A program made the position numbers and the translations under genes. A model generated the notes under the pieces. It made no database searches and had not been told where the DNA came from. It saw only the letters and a list, made by a program, of their open reading frames with translations. From an uncultured Gammaproteobacteria bacterium (lineage in GTDB: Bacteria; Patescibacteriota; Microgenomatia; Daviesbacterales; UBA10151), in the NCBI GenBank assembly GCA_964446685.1, contig CAYUPO010000004.1, forward strand, positions 20,164-84,163: a DNA stretch of 64,000 nt, given 5' to 3'. Shown here piece by piece: positions 2,045 through 56,040 of this stretch (its first letter is position 1; the number at the start of each line of letters is the position of its first letter).

Positions 2045-2590
2045 TGAAGAACATACTAACACATGGAATAACCGCAAGAATAGCAGTTTTTAAGAGAATG
2101 GAGTGCTACATGACAACGATTAATGTAGTAACGTAATTCTCGCAAGAAATGTTACTCAACACATTGAATAACCACAGGAGTAACATTTTTTAAGATATTG
2201 AAGTGCTATTGAGAAAACTATCTCAATAGTAGCGGAAATATCGAAAGAAATGTTACTCAGCACATTGAATAACCACAGGAGTAACATTTTTTAAGATATT
2301 GAAGTGCTATTGAGAAAACTATCTCAATAGTAGCGGAAATATCGAAAGAAATGCTATTAACATATGCTATAACCACAGCTATAGCATTTCTTAAGATAAC
2401 GGAGTGCTACAAGACAGCGATCATTGTAGCAATGTAGTTATCGCAAAAAGTGCTAACACATAGAATACCCGCAAGAATAGCACTTTTTAAGAGAATGGAG
2501 TGCTACATGACAACGATTAATGTAGTAACGTAATTCTCGCAAGAAATGTTACTCAGCACATTGAATAACCACAGGAGTAACATTTCTTAC
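2045..2590. repeat. tandem array of ~97-103 bp structured repeat units (about 5.5 copies) overlapping the 3' end of nrdJ
   Basis: Units start near 2050, 2149, 2250, 2351, 2449 and 2546. Each has hairpin 1 (e.g. ATGTTACTC-loop CAGCACATTGAATAACCACAG-GAGTAACAT) followed by TTTTTTAAGA, a conserved GGAGTGCTA, then hairpin 2. Stems covary between units. Confidence 0.85.
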
Positions 2591-5090
2591 ATCCTTCTTC
2601 ATAGACAAAGGATGCCTGGCCGCATTCTGGGCAGAGGTCGGCGGTTACTTTGGTGGGGTCAGTTACACCCTGGGAAAAAAGCGGAGCTCCGACTACGTCA
2701 TCCACTCCGGTGTTCGGAGTCGAAGCTGGGCTGGTTTCTGCTTTTTCTTCAGTTAAATTAAGTGGCATTGTTTCAGCTTTGGCTTCACCCAGGTCTAGTC
2801 CACCCAAAGCCATATCTTCTGACAAAACTTTCGCAACAGCGTCTCCCAAACTCATCACCCGGTCTTTGCCAAATCCAACATGGGAAGATCCGCCAATTCC
2901 CCGCAGCTGAGAAGCAATCTTTTGAGCTACCTCTTTTGGATTGGAGTTCGCAGTTCTAGCCAGTCTCAAAGACATCGATATCAATCGTCCGATCGCTTCA
3001 GCATCAGCCATAGTATGCATTCCACCCCGTCCAATGGTAATAAATACTTCAAACGGCATATCCTGTTCATCACGGTTGATAGTCACATACGCTTCACCAA
3101 CCGGAGTTAATACTTTGTAGGTTCTTCCCCGCAAAATCATTGGTCTGGAAGTAGTCACTGCCGGAGCAATTACTTCCTCTTTCTTTTCTTCCTTCTTCTC
3201 TTCGTGATAGAGCACTCCGGCTCTTGATCCGTCCCGGAAAAATGTCACACCTTTACAACCCATTTTGTAAGCTTCCATATAAAGCTCCTTCACCTGGTCC
3301 ACTGTAAAGTCGAAAGATGCATTGGCTGTTTTGGAGATGGATGAATCAGTATATCCCTGAATCAAAGCCTGAACTCTGACATGATCAAGTGGTGACATAT
3401 CATTAGCTCCGACATAATAATCAGGCTTCTGTTCATAAGTTTTGTCAGGATTTTCCTTCTGCCACTGTTCATACAGTGGATGCAAAATAGTATGCTCACC
3501 AATCCGGTCGCGTCTGATAAATTTAAAATCAAATACTGGTTCAATTCCTGAAGATACTCCAGCTAACAAAGAAGTAGTTCCGGTAGGCGCCTGAGTCAGG
3601 ATAACCGCATTTCGGATCCCCTGTTTACTGATTTTATCCTGAATATATTTTGGCAACTGTTTAATAAAATGACCCTGTAAGTATTTTTCAGCATCAAATT
3701 TTGGAAAAGCGCCTTTTTCTTTCGCCAGATCAGATGATGTTTCATAAGAAGCGTCCCTGATAGTCTGATAAATCTTCTCAATTACCGGCATCGCTTCAGC
3801 ACTACCATAACGCAATTTCATTTTAATCAGGGCGTCTCCCAGACCCATTGTTCCGATACCAGTCCGGCGGATCTCTTTGGCTTTGATCTCATTTTGTTCC
3901 CAGAAGTAATAATTGGCATCGACTACATTGTCCATAAATCTCATTGAAGTCCTGGTTTTAGCATCCAGATCTTCAAAATCAAAAGATCCATCTTCTTTAA
4001 CAAATGCGGACAAATTCATCGCCCCCAGATTACAGACTGCCCATTCACCCAATGGCTGTTCACCACATGGATTAGTTGAAAGCAATTTTTCAAAATACCA
4101 GGTGTTACTCCATTTATTACTTCTTTCCAAAAAGTGCAGACCAGGTTCAGCTGATTTCCAGGCGGAAGTACAAATCTGATCCCAGATCTCCCGGGCTGGC
4201 ATTCTGGAATACTCAACCACTTTTTTACCCATATCAGTCCAGTTTTCCAGCACTCCATCCCATTTTTCATCATATTCAGGATCGGCAATATCCGGAAATA
4301 CTGTTACCCATTCTTCATCTTTTTGAACAGCTTCCATAAATTTATCTGACACACAGACAGACAGGTTGGCTCCAGGAATAGACACGCCGTCTTCTTTAGC
4401 ATGAATAAATTCAATTACATCAGGATGCCAGTCATGCAGCATCAGCATCAAAGCTCCGCGTCTGGATCCACCCTGCTGGATCACATCATGATTGGCAGCA
4501 GAATAAAGCTTAGCCCAGGAAACAGGACCTGAGGATTTACCGTTTACTTTTCTGACTCTGGCTCCATTTGGTCTAAGGGAAGACAAATTAATACCTACAC
4601 CACCACCTCGGGCCTGGATCTCAACAGTGTGAGTAATATTTTCCATAATTCCTCCCCGGGAATCTTTTGGTGAAGGGATCACATAACAGTTAAAAAAAGT
4701 TACTTCATATCCAGTCCCAGCTCCTGACAAAATACGACCAGCCGGAACAAATTTAAATCCTTCCATTGCTTCATAAAACCTTTGACCCCACAGTTTTCTC
4801 AGCTCTGGTGTCTTTTCCATATGAGCAATCCCCGCAGCCACTCTCTGCCACATCTCTTCCGGAGTTGTTTCAACTGGATCTCCTTTAGCATCTTTTAAAG
4901 AATACCTGTCCATGAAAACTTTTTGTCTGACACCATCAAGCTCTGTTTTTGTCCGGATAGTTGGCATTATCAATTCTGAAGTAGGAACAATACCATTTTT
5001 GGATTTAGAGATTTTGGTCTGAGGAACAGCTACCTGCAAAGCAACTGATTTTAAACTTTTTCCTGCTGTTTTTGTTTTAGTTTGTTTCAT
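2553..5090 (-). CDS. nrdJ: ribonucleotide reductase, adenosylcobalamin-dependent class II (NrdJ-like), with C-terminal zinc ribbon
   Basis: NPCGEQPLGEW active-site motif, no ATP cone, C-terminal CPECG...CKKCYSCGYSMC ribbon, NrdR gene directly upstream. The ORF extends to 5141, but MKQTKTKT (ATG 5088-5090) is the likelier start. Confidence 0.75.
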   Translation of the reverse strand: MKQTKTKTAGKSLKSVALQVAVPQTKISKSKNGIVPTSELIMPTIRTKTELDGVRQKVFMDRYSLKDAKGDPVETTPEEMWQRVAAGIAHMEKTPELRKLWGQRFYEAMEGFKFVPAGRILSGAGTGYEVTFFNCYVIPSPKDSRGGIMENITHTVEIQARGGGVGINLSSLRPNGARVRKVNGKSSGPVSWAKLYSAANHDVIQQGGSRRGALMLMLHDWHPDVIEFIHAKEDGVSIPGANLSVCVSDKFMEAVQKDEEWVTVFPDIADPEYDEKWDGVLENWTDMGKKVVEYSRMPAREIWDQICTSAWKSAEPGLHFLERSNKWSNTWYFEKLLSTNPCGEQPLGEWAVCNLGAMNLSAFVKEDGSFDFEDLDAKTRTSMRFMDNVVDANYYFWEQNEIKAKEIRRTGIGTMGLGDALIKMKLRYGSAEAMPVIEKIYQTIRDASYETSSDLAKEKGAFPKFDAEKYLQGHFIKQLPKYIQDKISKQGIRNAVILTQAPTGTTSLLAGVSSGIEPVFDFKFIRRDRIGEHTILHPLYEQWQKENPDKTYEQKPDYYVGANDMSPLDHVRVQALIQGYTDSSISKTANASFDFTVDQVKELYMEAYKMGCKGVTFFRDGSRAGVLYHEEKKEEKKEEVIAPAVTTSRPMILRGRTYKVLTPVGEAYVTINRDEQDMPFEVFITIGRGGMHTMADAEAIGRLISMSLRLARTANSNPKEVAQKIASQLRGIGGSSHVGFGKDRVMSLGDAVAKVLSEDMALGGLDLGEAKAETMPLNLTEEKAETSPASTPNTGVDDVVGAPLFSQGVTDPTKVTADLCPECGQASFVYEEGCKKCYSCGYSMC

Positions 5091-5197
5091 TGTTATTTCT
5101 TTTTCTCGGACTAATATTATTAACTGACTGATGTAACACAATCAACCTATATTTTATACGACTTAATGTATCAAAATTCCTATAAGTTTAACTGCTC

Positions 5198-5798: not shown

Positions 5799-6215
5799 CT
5801 ACTCAGAATCTTGTGGTTGCGTTTTAACTTGAGTTTGAGCTTCTATTCGGATCCGTCTACTTCTATCTCGCAACAATCCAAAACCCAAAAGTGCTGAACC
5901 TATTACAGACATACCGCCTGTTACCAAACCACCAACCATAACTTTTTCCGAAACTTCACTAATCTCAGCTGTATAAGCAGCAACAGCTGGATCTACAGGT
6001 TGAGTTTGATCTAAAACAACTTCAGAAGATTTATTCAGCCTCGCTGCAAGATGAGCCACAATAAGAGATCCGGGAATAACCGGGATTAAACTAGCCAAAA
6101 CAGCTTTACATACGTATCGCCTTGTTTCACTTTGTCTTCTATCTACAGCTTGCATATCTTCAGGTGAGTTAATCATGCGGGATTTATAACATCTTTGAAG
6201 AATATATTCAATCAA
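5799..6215 (-). CDS. hypothetical membrane protein
   Basis: 138 aa with hydrophobic segments and a basic C-terminal tail RDRSRRIRIE. Confidence 0.4.
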   Translation of the reverse strand: MIEYILQRCYKSRMINSPEDMQAVDRRQSETRRYVCKAVLASLIPVIPGSLIVAHLAARLNKSSEVVLDQTQPVDPAVAAYTAEISEVSEKVMVGGLVTGGMSVIGSALLGFGLLRDRSRRIRIEAQTQVKTQPQDSE

Positions 6216-6219
6216 TTAA

Positions 6220-6795
6220 CTATTTAATAAAGTTTCTCAGAAACTCCAAAAACTTATCATAATAAGTATAAAAAATATAGACATTGGCAAAAAGTAATCC
6301 CGGAAAAATAACTGATTTCTCAACAAACCCACCCGTTTTAATTCTCATTAACCGGAATGGGGGAACTCCAAAATGAATCGGAATCGGAAAAAGCCAGGGA
6401 ACACCATCTCTGGTCAGCATATCCATGAACAAATGCGACACAAAACCAATCATAAAACTCCACCAGACTACATTCATATCCACCAAGACAACACTAGACA
6501 TTGCATCAAGTAATAAGTCCAGTAAAAAGCCAAACAAAAAAACACCGAGTATGGAATGAGAAATAAATCTATGACCTCCCAAAAATCGGTAAAATACCCG
6601 CCCCCAGACTCCTCCGGCGGGCAATCTATTCCAAAGTGAAGCCGTTGGCTGATCAATATCAGGCGCCAGCCCTCCGATAAAATTCATTGATAAAGCCACC
6701 AAAACAGTTGACAATCTCATTTCAGGCAAAGGCTGCGTTGCCACAACAAAAGATAATGCAGTAAAAGCAGCTAAATCATGTGTTCTTCCAGTCAT
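6220..6795 (-). CDS. membrane-bound metal-dependent hydrolase (DUF457/YdjM-like)
   Basis: Polytopic membrane protein beginning MTGRTHDLAAFTALSF with GGLAPDID and HS..GH motifs typical of the YdjM family. Confidence 0.55.
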   Translation of the reverse strand: MTGRTHDLAAFTALSFVVATQPLPEMRLSTVLVALSMNFIGGLAPDIDQPTASLWNRLPAGGVWGRVFYRFLGGHRFISHSILGVFLFGFLLDLLLDAMSSVVLVDMNVVWWSFMIGFVSHLFMDMLTRDGVPWLFPIPIHFGVPPFRLMRIKTGGFVEKSVIFPGLLFANVYIFYTYYDKFLEFLRNFIK

Positions 6796-6830
6796 AATTT
6801 ATTAGTATTAAGTATTAAGTATTAAGTATT
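6796..6830. repeat. short tandem repeat (TATTAAGT)x4
   Basis: Seen directly: ttagtattaagtattaagtattaagtattaagag. Confidence 0.8.
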
Positions 6831-6919
6831 AAGAGAAAAGTAGCAAATTCCCTAGATTCATTACGATTTACTTACTTATACACAATAATAATATTACTCT
6901 AAATAACGATACTACACAC

Positions 6920-7309
6920 ATGTCACTGTCCAATCCTGAAATATCCTCCAAAGATTCCCCCACTTTTTTTCATCAGGTAGCACAAATACTTCACGATACC
7001 TATCCTCAGCCAGACTCAGACATCTTATCTGATTTATTAGCAGATATAAATCCTAAAAAAGCGGCCTTTTTTGCTGATTATTTAAATAGCCCAGAGTTTA
7101 AAAATCCAAATGAAATCAGACGCTTAATAGAAAGTCATGTTATTACTGAGTTAGCTGATGCAATCCAGAATCCCCAGAGACTAGCCGGAAGGAAGAGAGA
7201 AGAACCTACCCCAATAAGACAACTAAATGTAACCAGAAGAAGAGATCTATCTAGTGGAAAACCCAACAACTATCCCCAACCCCCACCCCGTTTAATACGT
7301 CTTCCATAG
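6920..7309 (+). CDS. hypothetical protein (Pro-rich C-terminus)
   Basis: 129-aa ORF with no recognisable motif. Confidence 0.35.
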   Translation: MSLSNPEISSKDSPTFFHQVAQILHDTYPQPDSDILSDLLADINPKKAAFFADYLNSPEFKNPNEIRRLIESHVITELADAIQNPQRLAGRKREEPTPIRQLNVTRRRDLSSGKPNNYPQPPPRLIRLP

Positions 7310-7480
7310 TTGAGTTAGCCTTGGTCTTACCTAAAGCTTGTAGTAATATTACATTTGACAACTGCGTGAAAAGTTTTGTACACTGTGAAAACAGATGAAG
7401 ACACAAGGCTTACTTCTAATCCTGAGCTTCCTTTCATTCTTAATGTTCTCAATAGTCACCTCAGTCTCAGCACATATCCA

Positions 7481-7970
7481 CTAAAGTAAAATTCAAAATA
7501 ACAAATTCAAAATTTCAAACAAATTCAAAAAATAAAATCAAAAACTAGCTTTGCTGGGATTTAAATAAGATACTACTTAATATCTTTAATAGTTCATTTG
7601 ACTCAAGAAGTAACATTTTTCTTTCTTTTTCTAGTATAGGGTTATTTACCGTTTCAACTTCTAACATCTCAAGCCAATATCTACTTTCTTTAGACTCTTT
7701 CCTCGAAATTCTGATTCTATGCAGAAAATCTTTTTTACTAAGAGATTCATTAGCTTCAATATAGTTAGCTCCTACCGAACCTGAAGATCGAACCACTTGT
7801 TTTCCATCTTCTAATGCTCCAATTGTTTTTGGTAGCGATTTAACAAATATTCTGACTTTTTTCCCAAACTCAAGTGTTCTATCTTCTAAATCATATTGTT
7901 TTGGATTTTCTATTTTATCCATTTGAATTTATTTGAAATTTTGAATTTGTTATTTTGAATTTTACTTTAG
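7481..7970. mobile_element. cassette bounded by a perfect 39-bp inverted repeat, carrying a four-helix-bundle gene (IVS-like / MITE-like element)
   Basis: 7481-7519 ctaaagtaaaattcaaaataacaaattcaaaatttcaaa is the exact reverse complement of 7932-7970. The right arm overlaps the last two codons of the PPIase gene. Confidence 0.45.
7545..7922 (-). CDS. four-helix-bundle protein (TIGR02436; 23S rRNA intervening-sequence protein family)
   Basis: 125 aa; matches the family pattern EF.KK...LP......Q..RS..SVGANYIEANES...KDF..R..IS.KE..ES..WL. Confidence 0.8.
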   Translation of the reverse strand: MDKIENPKQYDLEDRTLEFGKKVRIFVKSLPKTIGALEDGKQVVRSSGSVGANYIEANESLSKKDFLHRIRISRKESKESRYWLEMLEVETVNNPILEKERKMLLLESNELLKILSSILFKSQQS

Positions 7971-8636
7971 AGGCAGAATTGAAACAGTATTCATCAAATC
8001 TCCAACAGCTATCTTACTTACCACATCCTGCCCTTTAATAACCTTGCCAAAGATAGTGTAATTTGGCGGGAGACTGGTATTATCATCCAGCATAATAAAA
8101 AACTGACTTCCATTTGTATTGGGACCTGAATTTGCCATCGCAACTATTCCTTTTAAGTATTTTTTAGTAACTGGTTCATCAGCAAATTTGTAACCAGGTC
8201 CGCCTGTACCATTTCCTATCGGATCTCCTCCCTGAATCACAAATCCAGGAACCACCCGGTGAAAACTAAGACCATTATAAAATTCATCATTTGTTAAGGA
8301 AATAAAATTTGTAGCCGCTTTTGTTGCTTCTGGATAAATTTCAAACTCAATAACACCTTTATTAGTATCCAAAACTGCTTTTTTATTTTTTAATTCTTCC
8401 GCTGGCATATCTGCAAAAGGCTGAGTATATCTTTTCTTGGTTAACTGCGGAGCTGAACTCTGTTCAGGCTCAGGTTGGAGTTGATTTGTGTCCTGTTCCA
8501 TCGATAATCCAGACGAACTTGCAGCCGGAGTAGCAGATGGTTCAACTGTAAATGAACTAAGCTGAGAATAACTTAAAGCAATTACTGCTATTACGGTAAG
8601 CGCAATAAAACCAATTACAAAATGTTTCTGTGTCAT
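7962..8636 (-). CDS. ppiB: peptidyl-prolyl cis-trans isomerase, cyclophilin type, with N-terminal membrane anchor
   Basis: HRVVPGFVIQGGDP, MANSGPNTNGSQFFI and other cyclophilin motifs; N-terminal transmembrane helix. Confidence 0.9.
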   Translation of the reverse strand: MTQKHFVIGFIALTVIAVIALSYSQLSSFTVEPSATPAASSSGLSMEQDTNQLQPEPEQSSAPQLTKKRYTQPFADMPAEELKNKKAVLDTNKGVIEFEIYPEATKAATNFISLTNDEFYNGLSFHRVVPGFVIQGGDPIGNGTGGPGYKFADEPVTKKYLKGIVAMANSGPNTNGSQFFIMLDDNTSLPPNYTIFGKVIKGQDVVSKIAVGDLMNTVSILPLK

Positions 8637-13814: not shown

Positions 13815-13850
13815 ATATATTCACCTCCTCCTAGAATTAAATTACAAATT

Positions 13851-13931
13851 CAAAATTTCAAATGACAAACAATTTACAATTAAACACTTATTTATTGTTT
13901 GATATTTGGAACTTGTTATTTTGAATTTTTA
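13851..13931. repeat. solo copy of the AT-rich inverted-repeat termini seen around the four-helix-bundle cassette (MITE-like, no cargo)
   Basis: acaaattcaaaatttcaaa ... cttgttattttgaattttt closely resembles the two arms of the 7481/7970 inverted repeat. Confidence 0.4.
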
Positions 13932-20139: not shown

Positions 20140-20310
20140 AAAACAGGCAAATTTCCAATTTTCAAACCATAATTTTCAATCAATGCTCAATGGAAAAATG
20201 TTCAATGATCATTATTTTTAATTGTAAATTCATTGGAAATTGAAAACTGCTAATTGAAAATTTAAATAAGACTTATTGACAATGATACCAAATAAACTGA
20301 TCATTAATAT

Positions 20311-22907: not shown

Positions 22908-23156
22908 ATGTTTTATGCGAAGTCACAATTTTATTTATGACTCCACTCAAACACTATGAGACAAGAAGATTAACTTTACAGAGTATAATTATATCATACT
23001 ATAGGACTATAATCAAGTTAAAGAGAGTTAATTAGTAAACCAGTGAATTAGTTAATTAGACCAATTTGAGGCTAAATTTCCCTCTCCACCCCACCATAAC
23101 ATCCATCTACTATCTACCAACTACCATCTACTACCTAAATTTGCTACCTTTAATAG

Positions 23157-29270: not shown

Positions 29271-29535
29271 GAGTGGAGATAGTGTACAAGATGAAAACTA
29301 ATCTGTAAAGTCGTGAAAAGGATTCATTATCATATAAAATATTCTGTAGCTAGCTACAGAATTACCCTGTTTATGATAAGAAAAAATTCTGATTTTTTCA
29401 TTTCCCGCGTGTAGTAAATAAAATTAACCGCAAAGCGTTCACAAAAAGAGCCACCACATAAGATCCGGCCTGAACAAAAAACAGAAATACCCCATTTAAA
29501 ATAGTATCAAAGACGCATCCGCACATACAAAAAAT

Positions 29536-29650
29536 TTCTAAGTACTAATTTCTAATGTCTAAACAATGTCCAAAACTAAATGTCTAACTGTTTAGTCATT
29601 GGGATTTGTTTAGAGTACTTAGAAATTAGATTAATTAGAAATTTCCCCTT
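29536..29650. repeat. palindromic intergenic repeat of the TTAGAAATTAG family
   Basis: aatttctaagtactaatttctaa ... ttagagtacttagaaattag, with a nested ctaaacaatg/cattg..ttgtttag palindrome. Confidence 0.5.
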
Positions 29651-30618
29651 CCTTTCATCCTCAGCACTTTCAAAACAGCTTTTTTAATGTCTTTATGGGT
29701 CAGGCCAAAATGTTTCATCAGCTCTATTGGCTCGCCGCTTTCACCAAAGCTGTCTTCGATCCCTATTCTGACTACAGGAACCGGATGATGTTCAGCTACA
29801 AGTTCTGCCACAGCTGAACCGAGTCCTCCGGCTTTTTGATGTTCTTCAGCTGTCACAATTGCTCCAGTCTCCTCAGCTGCTGCCAAAATAGTTTTCTGAT
29901 CAAGTGGTTTAATTGTGTGATTGTTAATAACCCGCACAGAAATATGATTTTCTTCTAACTCTTTAGCAGCCAAAAGAGCCTGGTAAACCATTACTCCACA
30001 AGCAATAATAGTAACGTCTTTTCCTTCTTTAAATACTTCAGCTTTACCAATTTCAAATGGTGTTTCTTCAGTAGTTACAACCTGAGATTTATCCCGGGAT
30101 AACCTGATATATGAAGGTTTCCCGTTTCTGGCAATTGCCTGAGTTGCTTTCTTTGCTTCAATTGCATCAGCCGGACAAACAACCACCATGTTTGGCAATA
30201 CCCGCATAATTGCCAGATCTTCCAGTGCCTGATGCGTCGCACCATCTGGACCAACTGAAATCCCAGCATGAGAACCAACAATTTTGACAGGCTGATCGTT
30301 ATAACAAATAGTAGTCCGGATCTGCTCCCAGTTTCTTCCAGGAGAAAAAGTCGCATAAGACGCCACAAATGGAATCTTCCCCACAGCCGCCATACCGGCA
30401 CCAACAGTCACCAAGTTTTGCTCAGCAACACCAACCTCAACAAATCGCTCTGGAAACTTTTTCTTAAATCCTTCCATCCGAGTTGATTCAGTCAGATCAG
30501 CACACAGAGCCACCACATTCTTATCAGCCTCCCCAGCCAACACCAACCCCTCACCAAAACCATTCCTTGTCGGAACCTGTTCAACATCTTCATCAAATAA
30601 TTTAGGATTTAATTTCAT
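29635..30618 (-). CDS. transketolase, C-terminal (pyrimidine-binding) subunit
   Basis: FVEVGVAEQNLVTVGAGMA motif; forms a split transketolase with the next gene. Confidence 0.85.
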   Translation of the reverse strand: MKLNPKLFDEDVEQVPTRNGFGEGLVLAGEADKNVVALCADLTESTRMEGFKKKFPERFVEVGVAEQNLVTVGAGMAAVGKIPFVASYATFSPGRNWEQIRTTICYNDQPVKIVGSHAGISVGPDGATHQALEDLAIMRVLPNMVVVCPADAIEAKKATQAIARNGKPSYIRLSRDKSQVVTTEETPFEIGKAEVFKEGKDVTIIACGVMVYQALLAAKELEENHISVRVINNHTIKPLDQKTILAAAEETGAIVTAEEHQKAGGLGSAVAELVAEHHPVPVVRIGIEDSFGESGEPIELMKHFGLTHKDIKKAVLKVLRMKGRGNF

Positions 30619-30633
30619 GACAAAAACCTCCAT

Positions 30634-32661: not shown

Positions 32662-33256
32662 CAATATCTCCTTTCTGTAAATACGAACCAATTACCAGCC
32701 TTTCGGCTCCCGCTTCAATTAGTTTTAAGGCTGTTTCCAGATTAACACTGCCATCAACAGCCACTACTCCAACCATTTTTGAGGCATCTTTCACTTTATC
32801 ATATGTAGTTAAGAGAAAAGACTGACCTTGTTTGCCAGGATGGATCGCCATTACCTGCAAAACCTCAATTTTTTCAGAATATTTTTTTACCTCTTCTAAA
32901 GAAGTCTCCGGATTTATTGCCAAACCAGCAGACATCTCAGATTGTAAAATTAAATCCAAAGTCTCCATTACTTTTTCAGCTTCCAGATGAATAATAACCC
33001 GCTCAAAACCCTGCTCTTTCAGATCTTTGATCCAGTCAATCGGATTTTTAACCATTAAATGAGCTTCTTTGTGAAAAGGAATTTCCTGCGTTGCCAAGGA
33101 TGATGGCTGAATACTTTTTGTTTCAACCAGTTCGCCATCCATAAAATCAATATGCACCCATCCATCTTCCAAAGCCGACGCACTTTTCAGCTTGTTCAGC
33201 TGCTCAGAAAATTCAGATTCATTTGTAGCCAAAATTGCGGGAATTAGTGTAACCAT
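32624..33256 (-). CDS. rpe: ribulose-phosphate 3-epimerase
   Basis: HIDFMDGELV, MAIHPGKQGQSF and VAVDGSVN match the Rpe metal-binding and barrel motifs. Confidence 0.7.
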   Translation of the reverse strand: MVTLIPAILATNESEFSEQLNKLKSASALEDGWVHIDFMDGELVETKSIQPSSLATQEIPFHKEAHLMVKNPIDWIKDLKEQGFERVIIHLEAEKVMETLDLILQSEMSAGLAINPETSLEEVKKYSEKIEVLQVMAIHPGKQGQSFLLTTYDKVKDASKMVGVVAVDGSVNLETALKLIEAGAERLVIGSYLQKGDIDENLEKIWEALG

Positions 33257-33257
33257 A

Positions 33258-33362
33258 AGACAATTTGAAATTCACAATTTGAAATTTGAAGTTAATTTGA
33301 AATCTTTAAAATTTAATTTTGAAAACCAACTTTTCAATTCAAATTTCAAATTTCAAATTTCA
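33258..33362. repeat. AT-rich palindromic TTGAAAT/ATTTCAA intergenic repeat
   Basis: gaaattcacaatttgaaatttgaag ... caaatttcaaatttcaaatttcaaatt. Confidence 0.5.
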
Positions 33363-33364
33363 AA

Positions 33365-33823
33365 TTATTTTAATCTATACTGCTCTAGCTCTTTTAGCTT
33401 ATTTATCCGTCTAATATGTCTTTCTTCACCTGTGAAAGCGGTATTTAAAAATGTTTTTACCATCTCATAAGCAGTATCAGCTATCAGTACATCTGAAGCT
33501 AAACAGATGATATTGGCATCCTCATGTTCTCTGGACTGAGCAGCTCTTTTTTCATCAAATACCAGGCAGGATCTGACCCCCTTAACTTTATTTGCCGCCA
33601 TATCCACTCCAACTCCGGATCCGCAAATTAAAACCCCCTTGCTATCTGAATCCTCCGCAACAGCCTGTCCGACTGCCTGAGCATAATCAACATAATCATC
33701 GGCCGGATCCAAGTTTTCATTTCCCATATCTTCATATTCCAGTCCGTCAGCATCCATCCGCCTTTTTAGCTCTTCTTTTAATTCGAATCCTCTGTGATCA
33801 GCTCCGATATAAATCATGAACAT
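33365..33823 (-). CDS. rpiB: ribose-5-phosphate isomerase B
   Basis: IYIGADHRGFELKE ... VLICGSGVGVDMAANK; 152 aa. Confidence 0.85.
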   Translation of the reverse strand: MFMIYIGADHRGFELKEELKRRMDADGLEYEDMGNENLDPADDYVDYAQAVGQAVAEDSDSKGVLICGSGVGVDMAANKVKGVRSCLVFDEKRAAQSREHEDANIICLASDVLIADTAYEMVKTFLNTAFTGEERHIRRINKLKELEQYRLK

Positions 33824-34345: not shown

Positions 34346-34436
34346 GAATTAGACTCCTTGAATTTCTTACACTGAATTGTTACTATAAAAACCAAATATA
34401 AACCGTAACTCTGCCTTATGTTGTGACACATGACGC

Positions 34437-35879
34437 ATGATACATGACTCACCAACTATGCCGCTGCCCAGCACACTCGTATTTCTTGACACTGAAACCA
34501 CCGGCGGAAGCCTGAGGACTGACCGGGTGATTGAGATCGGTATGCTTCGGGTGGAAAACGGTAAAGTTGTCAAAAAGTTTACTTCACTGATCAACCCTCA
34601 AAGATATGTCCCGCCGGAGATTGAAATGCTGACAGGTATTTCCGGAGCTATGGTAGACACTGCTCCAACTTTCTTTGAACTAAAAGATCAAATTCTGGAA
34701 ATGATGGAAGATGCTGTTTTTGTAGCCCATAATGCCCGGTTTGATTATGGATTTATTAAGACCGAATTTAAAAGGTTGGGAATAAATTTTTCTGCTAAAC
34801 ACTTATGCACTGTCAAACTTTCCCGCAATTTATATCCCCAATACAGTCATCACAATCTTTCAATACTAATCGAACGGCATGGATTCACAATTGAGAACCG
34901 CCACCGGGCTTTTGATGATGCTGAAGTACTTTGGAAGTTTTACCAGAAAATCCAGACAGAATTTCCAGCCGAACTAATTGAAGCTGCCGTCAGTAAAGCT
35001 CAAAAAAGACCAAGTATTCCGACCGGCCTTTCCGGAGATGATCTGGATGCCTTGCCGGAAAATCCCGGAGTTTATATTTTTTATGGAGAAAGTGGAATCC
35101 CACTCTATGTTGGAAAAAGCGTTAATATCAGGGACCGGGTTTTATCTCATTTTGCCGCTGATCACACCTCATCCCTGGAACTTAAAATTACCCAGCAAAT
35201 CAAATCAATCGAAACCATTCAGACCGAAGGAGAACTGGGAGCATTGCTTAAAGAAGCCTATTTGGTTAAAAAATTGCAACCACTTTATAACCGGAGGCTT
35301 CGTCAGAAAAATAAATTATTAGTCCTGAAATATAGCGAAAATGAACAGGGTTACTTTAGTTGTAACTATGGTATTCAAGACAATATAGACCCACAGGAAA
35401 TAGACAAGATTATCGGTGTTTTCAGAAGCAAAAAGTCTCTGCAGGAATTTCTCTTTTCAATTGCCAAAGAGCATAATTTATGTGAGAAATTACTTGGTGT
35501 AGATAAGACATCTTCTAGCTGCTTTGGATACCGTTTAGGAAGGTGTAAAGGAGCTTGCAGCAATAAAGAAAAACCTTTGTTTTACAATTTTAGATTTATG
35601 GAAATAATCGGTAAAATGAAGTTTAAAAAGTGGCCGTTTGAACAGCCAATTGTGATCGATGATTACAGCAATGACGGAACAACCAGGGACAGTTTTATTA
35701 TCAACAACTGGTGTGTTATCGGCAAAATGAATACCTCCAGTAACAAACTTGAAACAACTTTAGATATTGGTTTTAACCTGGATACTTATAAGATTCTAAA
35801 CTCCTGTCTGAACAAACCAAAGTACGCCAAACACATCCGCACCATCAACCAGGACCAAATGCAGTTGTTTCAGATTTAA
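34437..35879 (+). CDS. DnaQ-like DEDD 3'-5' exonuclease fused to a GIY-YIG nuclease domain
   Basis: Exonuclease motifs LVFLDTETTG ... FVAHNARFDYGF ... HRAFDDA, then the GIY-YIG motifs GVYIFYGESGIPLYVGKSVNIRDRVLSH. Confidence 0.7.
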   Translation: MIHDSPTMPLPSTLVFLDTETTGGSLRTDRVIEIGMLRVENGKVVKKFTSLINPQRYVPPEIEMLTGISGAMVDTAPTFFELKDQILEMMEDAVFVAHNARFDYGFIKTEFKRLGINFSAKHLCTVKLSRNLYPQYSHHNLSILIERHGFTIENRHRAFDDAEVLWKFYQKIQTEFPAELIEAAVSKAQKRPSIPTGLSGDDLDALPENPGVYIFYGESGIPLYVGKSVNIRDRVLSHFAADHTSSLELKITQQIKSIETIQTEGELGALLKEAYLVKKLQPLYNRRLRQKNKLLVLKYSENEQGYFSCNYGIQDNIDPQEIDKIIGVFRSKKSLQEFLFSIAKEHNLCEKLLGVDKTSSSCFGYRLGRCKGACSNKEKPLFYNFRFMEIIGKMKFKKWPFEQPIVIDDYSNDGTTRDSFIINNWCVIGKMNTSSNKLETTLDIGFNLDTYKILNSCLNKPKYAKHIRTINQDQMQLFQI

Positions 35880-52614: not shown

Positions 52615-52700
52615 TATATTCGTAACACGATACACACAACACGAAACACCAACACAATTTATTCGTATTGCTTATTGCGTATCACTTTTCACTAACAAAT

Positions 52701-53021
52701 ATGGATTTTACAAAGAAAAAATGTGTTCCCTGTGAAACAGGTGAAGGCAAACTGACAATCGATAAAATAAAAGAATTTATGCCGGCAGTCGAAGGCTGGC
52801 TTTTAGCTGGCGATAATCTGGTTAAAGAATTTAAATTTAATAACTTCAGAGAATCAATCAAATTTATCAACCAGGTAGCTGATCTGGCCGAAGAAGAAGG
52901 CCACCATCCGGACATCATCTGTTTTTACGACAAAGTTCGCCTTCAACTAACAACTCACGCCGCCCACGGCCTAACAGAAAACGATTTCATAATGGGAGCG
53001 AAGATTAACAATCTGAGCTAA
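52701..53021 (+). CDS. pterin-4a-carbinolamine dehydratase (PCD/DCoH)
   Basis: EEGHHPDI ... THAAHGLTENDF signature. The likely start is MDFTKKKC, within ORF 52668..53021. Confidence 0.85.
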   Translation: MDFTKKKCVPCETGEGKLTIDKIKEFMPAVEGWLLAGDNLVKEFKFNNFRESIKFINQVADLAEEEGHHPDIICFYDKVRLQLTTHAAHGLTENDFIMGAKINNLS

Positions 53022-53091
53022 CATTTCAAGCTCTGCTTATCTTAGCCGCCAAAATTAACAATTTTTAAATAAAGGGCTAAGAGAGCTTTGC

Positions 53092-53117
53092 TCATAATGG
53101 GAGCGAAGATTAACAAT
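53092..53117. repeat. 26-bp direct repeat of the PCD gene 3' end
   Basis: TCATAATGGGAGCGAAGATTAACAAT occurs at 52987-53012 (inside the CDS) and again here. Confidence 0.7.
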
Positions 53118-53329
53118 TTATAAATTATTCCACTTGTCATGCTGAACTAGTTTCAGCATCTACCCAAAATTGTAGTTCTCCACTTCGGTCGAACAATAAA
53201 ATCATTTTTGTTACTGCCTCTTAAATAAACCTAAAAAAATATTTTTCGAGTGATTAGCGAGAAATTACCTAAAATTATATTTATTTGAAATTTCTCACGT
53301 AAATTCTTATTTAATTCGTTCGAAAAATA

Positions 53330-55899: not shown

Positions 55900-56040
55900 T
55901 AGTATAAAATTTCTAATTTCTAAATAACTATAAATATCTGGTTTAGATATTTGTTATTAAGACATTATTTAGAAATTAGAAATGAGGCAAGCCTCTTTCG
56001 AGCTTTGCTCAGAAATTAGAATAATTAGAAATTTGCGGCT
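55900..56040. repeat. TTAGAAATTAG-family palindromic repeat
   Basis: ttctaatttctaaataac ... ttatttagaaattagaaatgagg-hairpin-cagaaattagaataattagaaat. Confidence 0.5.

Follow-up and report, generated by a model that had tools for sequence, protein, structure and literature searches.

A four-helix-bundle gene cassette with inverted heptamer arms behind ppiB in a Patescibacteria genome: an element of the rRNA intervening-sequence type outside rRNA

Background

On a metagenomic contig of an uncultured member of the Patescibacteria (CAYUPO010000004.1; the 64,000 nt from position 20,164 to 84,163 are referred to here as the window), the peptidyl-prolyl isomerase gene ppiB is followed by a small gene for a four-helix-bundle (4HB) protein of the rRNA intervening-sequence family, enclosed within a long inverted repeat built of heptamers. 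Intervening sequences (IVSs) of rRNA that carry an open reading frame (ORF) have been known since the early 1990s, and the tandem heptamer repeats of cyanobacteria since about 1990; to our knowledge, neither has an accepted origin or function, and we know of no role assigned to the 4HB family outside diversity-generating retroelements (DGRs). What, then, is such a gene doing among protein-coding genes, and why is the repeat around it so nearly perfect? Here we report that the locus is one copy of a widespread promoterless cassette of about 475 nt that is found in Patescibacteria behind many unrelated genes. The element is of a known kind, the IVS type; what appears to be new is this architecture outside rRNA and the link between heptamers and the 4HB gene.

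The cassette at the ppiB locus

The two arms of the inverted repeat (7478-7529 and 7922-7973) are 52 nt long and 96% complementary, and the longest uninterrupted run of pairing covers 39 nt, exactly 7481-7519 and 7932-7970; the perfect 39-bp repeat proposed in an earlier reading made from the sequence alone (the sequence-only reading) was thus recovered to the nucleotide. With its boundaries set by comparison with 46 canonical loci of the family described below, the locus resolves into the following parts.

7489-7962, minus strand: whole cassette by family boundaries, 474 nt, comprising 5' arm, 4HB ORF and 3' arm
7923-7973, minus strand: 5' arm; 7923-7962 reads AAATTCA AAATAAC AAATTCA AAATTTC followed by AAATAAATTCAA, directly ahead of the ATG, and over 7963-7973 the repeat continues for another 11 nt, into the stop and final codons of ppiB
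7545-7922, minus strand: 4HB gene, 125 aa, TIGR02436 / PF05635
7478-7544, minus strand: 3' arm, with a post-stop region pairing with the ATG and first codons, TTTGTTT and four heptamers
7962-8636, minus strand: ppiB, cyclophilin-type peptidyl-prolyl isomerase, the co-oriented upstream host gene
7395-7484, plus strand: convergent small ORF for a hydrophobic product of 29 aa (MKTQGLLLILSFLSFLMFSIVTSVSAHIH), a marker of host sequence 3' of the cassette

The 5' end of the cassette lies exactly 40 nt ahead of the 4HB start codon, which abuts the inner end of the right arm, and the 3' end lies past the fourth heptamer, 56 nt beyond the stop codon; this matches the family layout exactly, as its A-type variant. 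In the 3' arm the heptamers read GAAATTT TGAATTT GTTATTT TGAATTT (7516-7489). The ppiB stop codon (7962-7964) sits within the right arm, as had been claimed, and abuts the first heptamer, and the C-terminus of the encoded protein (...PLK, then stop) does not differ between relatives that have the cassette and those that lack it. On the opposite side, the repeat extends over 7478-7488 across the stop codon of the small ORF, which is preceded by a promoter-like site (10/12) at 7355-7384 and is kept in the related contigs L002, L085, L087, L089 and L094, cassette present or not (the prefix L denotes contigs used for comparison). No promoter-like or terminator-like site was predicted in the interval between the ppiB and 4HB ORFs, and a scan of the window found no rRNA.

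About 68 consecutive pairs, which include the ATG and first codons, close the element in its RNA fold (z = -8.05), and a 31-mer of the arm had no match across 100 shuffles of the window. In the independent JGI contig L003, 95.4% identical overall, both arms are 100% identical to those of the window, so the repeat is not an assembly artefact. AT-rich, repetitive sequence from a metagenome assembly might lead one to suspect a chance low-complexity palindrome, a ppiB terminator or an artefact; given the shuffles, the fold and the identical arms of L003, the probability of any of these is negligible. The further thought that the arms belong to a conserved ppiB terminator fails on the gene-less relatives L089, L090/91 and L092, which are without arms, and on the lack of a predicted terminator-like site.

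The enclosed gene belongs to the rRNA-IVS family, as first supposed, its product scoring 49.5 bits against PF05635 (cutoff 33.8) and 63.1 bits against TIGR02436 (cutoff 24). In an alignment of 22 sequences, residues R45, S49, N53 and E56 are invariant or nearly so, and the R-x3-S-x3-N-x2-E motif noted for Xcc0516 homologues (PMC3936711) is present in the window protein. The family profile matches the solved structure 2RLD (five chains) over nearly its full length with E = 1.4e-16. More than 7,900 homologues of the window protein were found at E <= 1e-5, mostly in Patescibacteria metagenomes; the named ones come from Patescibacteria (Falkowbacteria, Wildermuthbacteria and others), many of them sharing 63-71% identity with the query. 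Purifying selection on the protein is strong, with dN/dS values of 0.05-0.08 (0.06 against L002, at a dS of 1.87 that indicates saturated synonymous sites). It had no match in the defence and phage libraries PADLOC and PHROG.

The cassette family in Patescibacteria

We compared 80 metagenome loci with 4HB genes 57-67% identical to that of the window; these are the closest to the query among at least 594 matches and hence a biased sample, and their neighbouring genes were called with a simple, crude ORF caller. Most of them have the identical arm layout at the same distances, with sharp ends and unrelated sequence outside. The 5' arm occupies exactly the 40 nt ahead of the ATG and consists of four tandem heptamers of the form AAnnnC[G/T/A] followed by AAACAAATTCAA; the first codons of the ORF (ATGACCAAAATTCAAAATTCAAAACAA) are A-rich; and the 3' side has the stop codon, TTTTGAACATTTGAA..., TTGTTT and four heptamers of the form [C/A/T]GnnnTT, the element ending 56-68 nt past the stop. 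Heptamer arrays number 157 in the 242 kb of these loci, compared with 0-1 in shuffled sequence. Beyond the 4HB protein, the full-length element encodes nothing. The possibility that the repeat might be unique to the ppiB locus, which the sequence-only reading had left as a way to be wrong, is disposed of by the homologous arms around most of the 80 loci and by the copies without cargo described below.

In 65 of 70 loci the gene upstream of the cassette lies on the same strand. For 21 of those 65, a distance of 38-45 nt separates the upstream stop codon from the 4HB ATG, often with TAA directly followed by AT..., which means that the arm begins at that stop codon. The interval between leuC and leuD holds a cassette in seven genomes, and published examples of family members lie inside cas operons (PMC3936711). 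Rfam scans of all 80 loci gave only three tRNAs and no rRNA, so that the proposal of an IVS-type architecture outside rRNA, with a 4HB ORF within stem-forming terminal repeats, holds for these loci as for the window. The longest direct repeat at the element boundaries averages 2.2 nt, as compared with 2.5 nt in mismatched-locus controls, a test with low power for target-site duplications of 2-3 nt. There is no transposase among the called neighbours within a few kb of the examined loci, the search not being genome-wide. An extension of the stem into the host flanks was sought across the family and none was found. One variant, at L087:3166-3576, has lost the canonical ATG; its ORF begins instead with an ATG overlapping the stop codon of ppiB (ATGA), which brings the heptamer arm into the reading frame and gives the protein an N-terminal extension (MINSNIENLNSRQYQNSNTRNSK...).

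Gain, loss and replacement at the ppiB slot

Homologues of the window ppiB were traced to their contigs and the sequence that follows the gene was compared. In L090/91 and L092 (ppiB 61-65% identical) a YdjM gene begins 30-85 nt after ppiB; this empty ppiB-YdjM slot is the ancestral state. In L089 (73%) the small 29-aa ORF is present and the arms are absent, the spacer being 251 nt long and without an ORF. The clade formed by the window, L084 and L093 (ppiB 89-95%) comprises an A-type 4HB cassette, the arm of a cassette with a GIY-YIG gene and a T-type 4HB arm, and the same three states (A-type 4HB, GIY-YIG and T-type 4HB) recur in the clade of L002, L087 and L094 (ppiB 82-86%). Between the window and L002, L087 and L085, identity of the 4HB proteins is 82%, 60% and 52%, and that of ppiB 78%, 79% and 76%, respectively. 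The discordance of these values, together with the differing states of the slot, implies gain, loss and replacement of cassettes; in other words, cassettes turn over at the ppiB slot.

These observations bear directly on the notion that the 4HB gene is an ordinary, vertically inherited gene whose repeats act in cis, by occluding the start codon or stabilising the mRNA, with nothing mobile involved. It would agree with the position of the start and first codons inside the predicted stem, with the strong purifying selection on the protein and with the presence of the insertion in relatives whose ppiB is 77-79% identical. It is nevertheless very unlikely, being largely refuted by the ppiB slot states, that is, by orthologous sites that are empty or alternatively filled and by the incongruent phylogeny, and also at variance with the occurrence of a sharp-ended unit of about 475 nt behind dozens of unrelated genes, with the miniature derivatives scattered through the window and with an identical arm 31-mer in a Falkowbacteria metagenome-assembled genome (MAG).

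Comparison of L003 with window positions 5997-8165 gives a mosaic, in which ppiB and the cassette are 98-100% identical and 5997-6219 is 99.6% identical, with the intervening hyp129 and YdjM genes at 91-93%. This suggests recent recombination in the region.

The GIY-YIG occupants of the slot are the following.

L094:3170-3535: GIY-YIG cassette, 99-aa ORF (PF01541) in its own 43-nt inverted repeat (77%)
L095:2715-3069: GIY-YIG cassette, likewise with a 99-aa ORF (PF01541) in its own 43-nt inverted repeat (77%)
L084:3205-3255: GIY-YIG cassette arm

Each GIY-YIG cassette arm holds a small hairpin (GCTGAAC..GTTTCAGC / CCCGAAAC..GTTCGGG). A lone 5' arm of the GIY-YIG type (CTTGTCATGCTGAACTAGTTTCAGCATC) is found in the window at 53133-53162, downstream of the gene at 52668-53021. 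Just upstream of this arm, a direct duplication of 24 nt (ATAATGGGAGCGAAGATTAACAAT; 52993-53016 and 53096-53119) copies the 3' end of the same gene and brackets about 80 nt that contain its stop codon; the duplication at 52993-53119 looks like an insertion scar.

Origin of the perfect arms

The arms of the window cassette are exceptional even within the family, their duplex (-61 kcal/mol, z = -7) being an outlier among 57 loci. The 5' arm is identical to that of L002 at 38 of 40 positions, despite the saturation of synonymous sites in the ORF. The 3' arm of L002 is composed of other heptamer words and shows 76% pairing over 67 nt, a typical value for the family; the 3' arm words of the window are the exact reverse complement of its own 5' arm, and complementarity exceeds the family boundary by 11 nt, over both the ppiB stop and the small-ORF stop. 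This pattern points to gene conversion from arm to arm in the window lineage. The cassette would have been inherited at the ppiB slot and its 3' arm later rewritten to complement the conserved 5' arm, the conversion spilling a few bases into the flanks and so producing the perfect 39-bp repeat. Recent insertion is an unlikely source of the perfect arms, since the cassette type is common to L002, whose ppiB is only 78% identical. Of the two origins that had been offered for the identity of the arms, recent activity or gene conversion, the second is thus favoured, and the first, taken as recent insertion, loses ground because the insertion is shared with relatives that have imperfect arms.

Miniature copies and other heptamer arrays

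At least four copies without an ORF are present in the window.

13839-13931, strand not assigned (palindromic, orientation ambiguous): A-type copy, 4+4 heptamers, AAACAAT / ATTGTTT, loop of about 16 nt
29533-29650, minus strand: T-type copy (AATTTCT...), minimum free energy -38.6 kcal/mol, z = -6.4
33256-33372, strand not assigned: looser heptamer hairpin (AATTTGA / TTCAAAT), 40-nt arms at 83%, z = -4.66
55905-55985, strand not assigned: short T-type hairpin (AATTTCT x2 ... AGAAATT x2), z = -4.2

The first of these contains a version of the arm 31-mer with three mismatches and is real as a hairpin (z = -3.0 / -3.5), its extent being slightly larger than the 13851-13931 at which an empty copy had been reported. 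A putative remnant of the ATG in this copy was considered and rejected, as the ATG lies within the fourth heptamer and the copy is palindromic. The second begins at the stop codon of the upstream gene 29635-30633 (minus strand) and, read on the minus strand, has heptamers, AAACAAATCCCAATGACTAAA... and a TTGTTT-type arm in canonical order; this copy and that at 55905-55985 are additions to those of the sequence-only reading. The third sits between two co-oriented genes and bears out the looser relative that had been seen at 33258-33362. The other supposed relative, at 20150-20280, has no hairpin support (z = 0.2 / -0.9) and contains the tandem array ATTGAAA x5 (20232-20266), found by Tandem Repeats Finder (TRF). 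The co-occurrence of A- and T-type copies in one genome indicates that the heptamer type is a property of the element lineage and not of host mutation bias alone.

Copies without an ORF are also present in L032 (twice), L053, L082 and L019, in which both arms remain, as do the ATG with 8-10 codons and the post-stop region, so that the whole stem is kept and the loop deleted. Those of L032, L053 and L019 have the appearance of full cassettes that underwent internal deletion. The initial description of the element as a palindrome that sometimes carries the gene therefore stands as regards dispersed copies with and without the gene, and does not stand in so far as it implied a palindrome that had acquired one.

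A Falkowbacteria MAG has a hairpin without cargo in which the exact 31-mer of the window arm recurs, the four heptamer words and their order being those of the window; this hairpin is nested within another heptamer hairpin, inside an ORF. The Falkowbacteria hairpins are located as follows.

L001:1834-2002 and 2410-2581 (JAZDKT010000117): heptamer hairpins with GAAATTA/GAAATTG, AAGATAC/AAGACAC and GCGTAAC units

They lie in an ORF for an O-antigen-ligase-like membrane protein, the reading frame of which is unbroken; one is nested in another, and one encloses about 130 nt of GC-rich cargo.

In the window as a whole, 18 of 65 TRF rows have a period of 7. Apart from the ATTGAAA array, those without a significant hairpin include TATTAAG x5 (6800-6833), CCATCTA x4 (23103-23131), TGACACA x3.6 (34424-34448) and TATTGCG x3.4 (52660-52682).

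A tandem array of a different kind, with a unit of 101 nt, occupies 2054-2589 (5.4 copies, 77% matches, TRF score 525; no Rfam match). The final 37 nt of the ribonucleotide reductase gene (2553-5141, minus strand) lie within this array, which continues downstream of the gene.

Heptamer arrays beyond the Candidate Phyla Radiation

A protein search of plasmids gave 25 records, mostly cyanobacterial, and 14 loci from outside the Candidate Phyla Radiation (CPR) were examined. They contain 23 tandem arrays of period 7 and none of period 5, 6, 8 or 9; 17 of the 23 lie no more than 130 nt from the 4HB ORF, in a zone covering about 11% of the sequence. Arrays directly flank the 4HB gene in 10 of the 14 loci (eight cyanobacterial, one from Chloroflexota and one from Treponema), usually inverted and with about four copies per side; those of Treponema and Pseudanabaena are in direct orientation. 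The inverted units are:

Dolichospermum: TAATTCG / AATTACG
Nostoc punctiforme: AGGTCGG / CCGACCT
Nostoc ATCC 53789: CAATTCG / GCGAATT
Planktothrix: CGTAAAT / ATTTACG
Chlorohelix: GGATGAA / TTCATAA
Aulosira and N. flagelliforme: AAATTCA / TGAATTT, identical to the window unit

Here too the 4HB genes stand between co-oriented genes, as in helicase-4HB-methylase, csx2-4HB-cas1 and between the adaptor and permease genes of an RND efflux system. The only two homologues matched on phage contigs (n = 2, unannotated), taken as a negative control for phage Avd, are without heptamer arrays.

The closest parallel is the IVS in the 23S rRNA of Coxiella burnetii and Leptospira, in which a PF05635/TIGR02436 ORF likewise lies in a loop that is closed by the pairing of terminal inverted repeats into a long stem. 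In Coxiella, three tandem heptamers (GACAGAT) and a degenerate fourth lie just upstream of the ATG of the S23p ORF, inside the stem; their copy number differs between strains, and RNase III cuts at the first repeat (PMC4990558). The cassette shares with this IVS the three to four tandem heptamers upstream of the ATG and inside the stem, and is of similar size (about 475 nt vs 428-444 nt for the Coxiella and Leptospira IVSs), and rRNA IVSs are similarly sporadic in distribution, with horizontal transfer proposed (PMC4990558). Insertions in CPR 16S and 23S rRNA also encode ORFs of this family, annotated as 23S_rRNA_IVP (PMC11270868). Unlike these, the cassette lies not in rRNA but behind protein-coding genes and inside operons, and whereas the Coxiella ORF is decaying, the cassette protein has a dN/dS of about 0.06. 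Heptamer arrays beside the ORF are a hallmark common to the classic rRNA IVS, the CPR cassette and the cyanobacterial genes.

The short tandemly repeated repetitive (STRR) heptamers of heterocystous cyanobacteria are also intergenic tandem units of 7 nt, often in inverted arrays that form hairpins. They have been described as standing alone, with no associated gene; the cyanobacterial arrays that flank 4HB genes are, we infer, STRRs in the original sense. Those arrays differ from the cassette in having purer tandem copies at 60-100 nt from the ATG. The available full-text literature contains no paper linking STRRs or heptamer repeats to 4HB genes and no account of non-rRNA 4HB cassettes with heptamer arms; older subscription literature lay outside this coverage and may hold priority on either point.

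Two other classes of element invite comparison. Integron gene cassettes are, like this one, promoterless single-ORF units co-oriented with an upstream source of transcription, and both have imperfect palindromes with conserved unpaired positions. However, the palindrome halves flank the ORF here, in place of a single attC on the 3' side, the cassette is solitary and sits behind unrelated genes, no integrase is apparent, no search aimed at one having been made, and inspection of the cassette by eye revealed no attC core sites. Miniature inverted-repeat transposable elements (MITEs) and the palindromic elements of Rickettsia resemble the miniature copies, which are palindromic, 90-130 nt long, dispersed and ORF-less, derive from a longer element and occur even within ORFs, as in L001. 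In contrast to MITEs, no target-site duplications or transposase were found at the examined loci, the parent element carries a 4HB gene and the heptamer termini vary.

A further relative of the protein is Avd, the accessory protein of DGRs, which has a homologous four-helix-bundle fold, forms a pentamer and binds nucleic acid and reverse transcriptase. As DGRs are common in CPR, and as PF05635 proteins are homologous to Avd and constitute the commonest family beside DGR reverse transcriptases (PMC10053308), the gene might be taken for an Avd gene and its repeats for part of a DGR. We regard this as extremely unlikely. No reverse transcriptase was called within a few kb, in the window or at syntenic loci, where the neighbours are ppiB, YdjM, a GNAT acetyltransferase, NrdR, ribonucleotide reductase, a response regulator and a KGG protein, and the repeats are arrays of 7 nt, not a pair of template and variable repeats.

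Stem pairing and mode of action

The stem is a family-wide, sequence-conserved feature. Each of the 41 elements folded has it in its predicted minimum-energy structure (median 42 long-range pairs), and within the heptamer blocks 82% of cells pair in register. At the final position of all four heptamers, G-C gives way to U-A or A-U through changes in both arms (23 vs 8-10 sequences), and hardly any cell there is unpaired.

Taking these data together, we consider it probable, at roughly 0.6, that the cassette is a non-rRNA counterpart of the ORF-bearing rRNA IVSs, with read-through transcription, processing at the stem, turnover at its slots and conversion between its arms. It is probably transcribed by read-through from the upstream gene; in the transcript, the arms, first codons and post-stop region would fold into a stem of 40-70 bp that buries the start codon, and RNase III, as in the Coxiella and Leptospira IVSs, would cut this stem, freeing the cassette RNA and leaving the host message on both sides intact. 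Such release would account for the tolerance of cassettes inside operons such as leuC-leuD. Over evolutionary time cassettes are gained, lost and replaced, and several decayed copies have dropped the body of the ORF and kept the stem, giving rise to miniature hairpins.

Several observations count against this reading. RNase III excision has been demonstrated for IVSs, while its extension to the cassette stem would be purely by analogy, and continuity with rRNA IVSs is argued only from architecture and protein family, 0 of the 80 loci lying in rRNA. At the three variable positions of both central heptamers, pairing is mostly absent. A search for covariation specific to individual loci was negative: within a heptamer class, the two arms of one locus pair no better than arms taken from different loci (permutation p 0.3-0.98), and an early positive result for cognate pairing came from the heptamer class. 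There is no signature of the RNA strand, G.U (52) being no commoner than A.C (57), and duplexes of sense and antisense arms are equally stable (-40.9 vs -41.0 kcal/mol), so that a role in the sense RNA cannot be told from one at the level of DNA or of protein recognition. Finally, part of the turnover at the ppiB slot could be due to homologous recombination between strains and not to transposition, and the mosaic identity of L003 and the window fits such a share.

Some of the same results would suit arms that act as DNA, the heptamer arrays being binding or synapsis sites, as duplex or as extruded hairpin. Their partner would be either the 4HB protein or a recombinase or transposase provided in trans, and the element would move as DNA, a MITE with cargo, with the RNA stem as a by-product. 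The absence of a G.U-over-A.C bias or a strand difference is what would be expected, as are the conservation of the 7-nt frame and of a C-G-A-A core with middle triplets that vary independently between the arms, the ORF-less miniatures and sharp boundaries, and the direct arrays of Treponema and Pseudanabaena, which cannot form a stem and yet are present. We nonetheless hold this alternative to be rather unlikely. Neither target-site duplications (2.2 vs control 2.5) nor a called transposase gene accompany the examined loci; co-orientation with the upstream gene in 65 of 70 is not expected from DNA transposition alone; and the heptamer sequence is wholly different between phyla while the protein is conserved, and a search for protein columns that track the G/T heptamer class returned no discriminating residue.

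A more sweeping proposal can be made only tentatively, and we would not yet bet on it: that 4HB genes bracketed by about four heptamers (and one degenerate) per side form a single pan-bacterial class of promoterless, operon-invading cassettes, of which the ORF-bearing rRNA IVSs would be merely the special case noticed first. As a part of this proposal, the protein, as a pentameric ring, may act on the heptamer arrays of its own cassette, each subunit engaging one 7-nt unit, on the model of TRAP, which binds spaced triplets. Decayed copies might likewise be the source of dispersed heptamer arrays and hairpins, including the cyanobacterial STRRs and the hairpins of CPR genomes.

Significance

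At a practical level, cassettes and hairpins of this kind may break CPR metagenome assemblies, and one related contig ends just past the ppiB stop; a hairpin of L001 lies inside an annotated ORF. For the family itself, the gene and its inverted heptamer arrays travel together as one discrete unit, in mRNA contexts far more often than in rRNA, and this unit leaves miniature hairpins behind, so that three separate curiosities become one testable system. If the pan-bacterial proposal is true, it would provide a mechanistic origin for the unexplained bacterial excess of 7-nt repeats.

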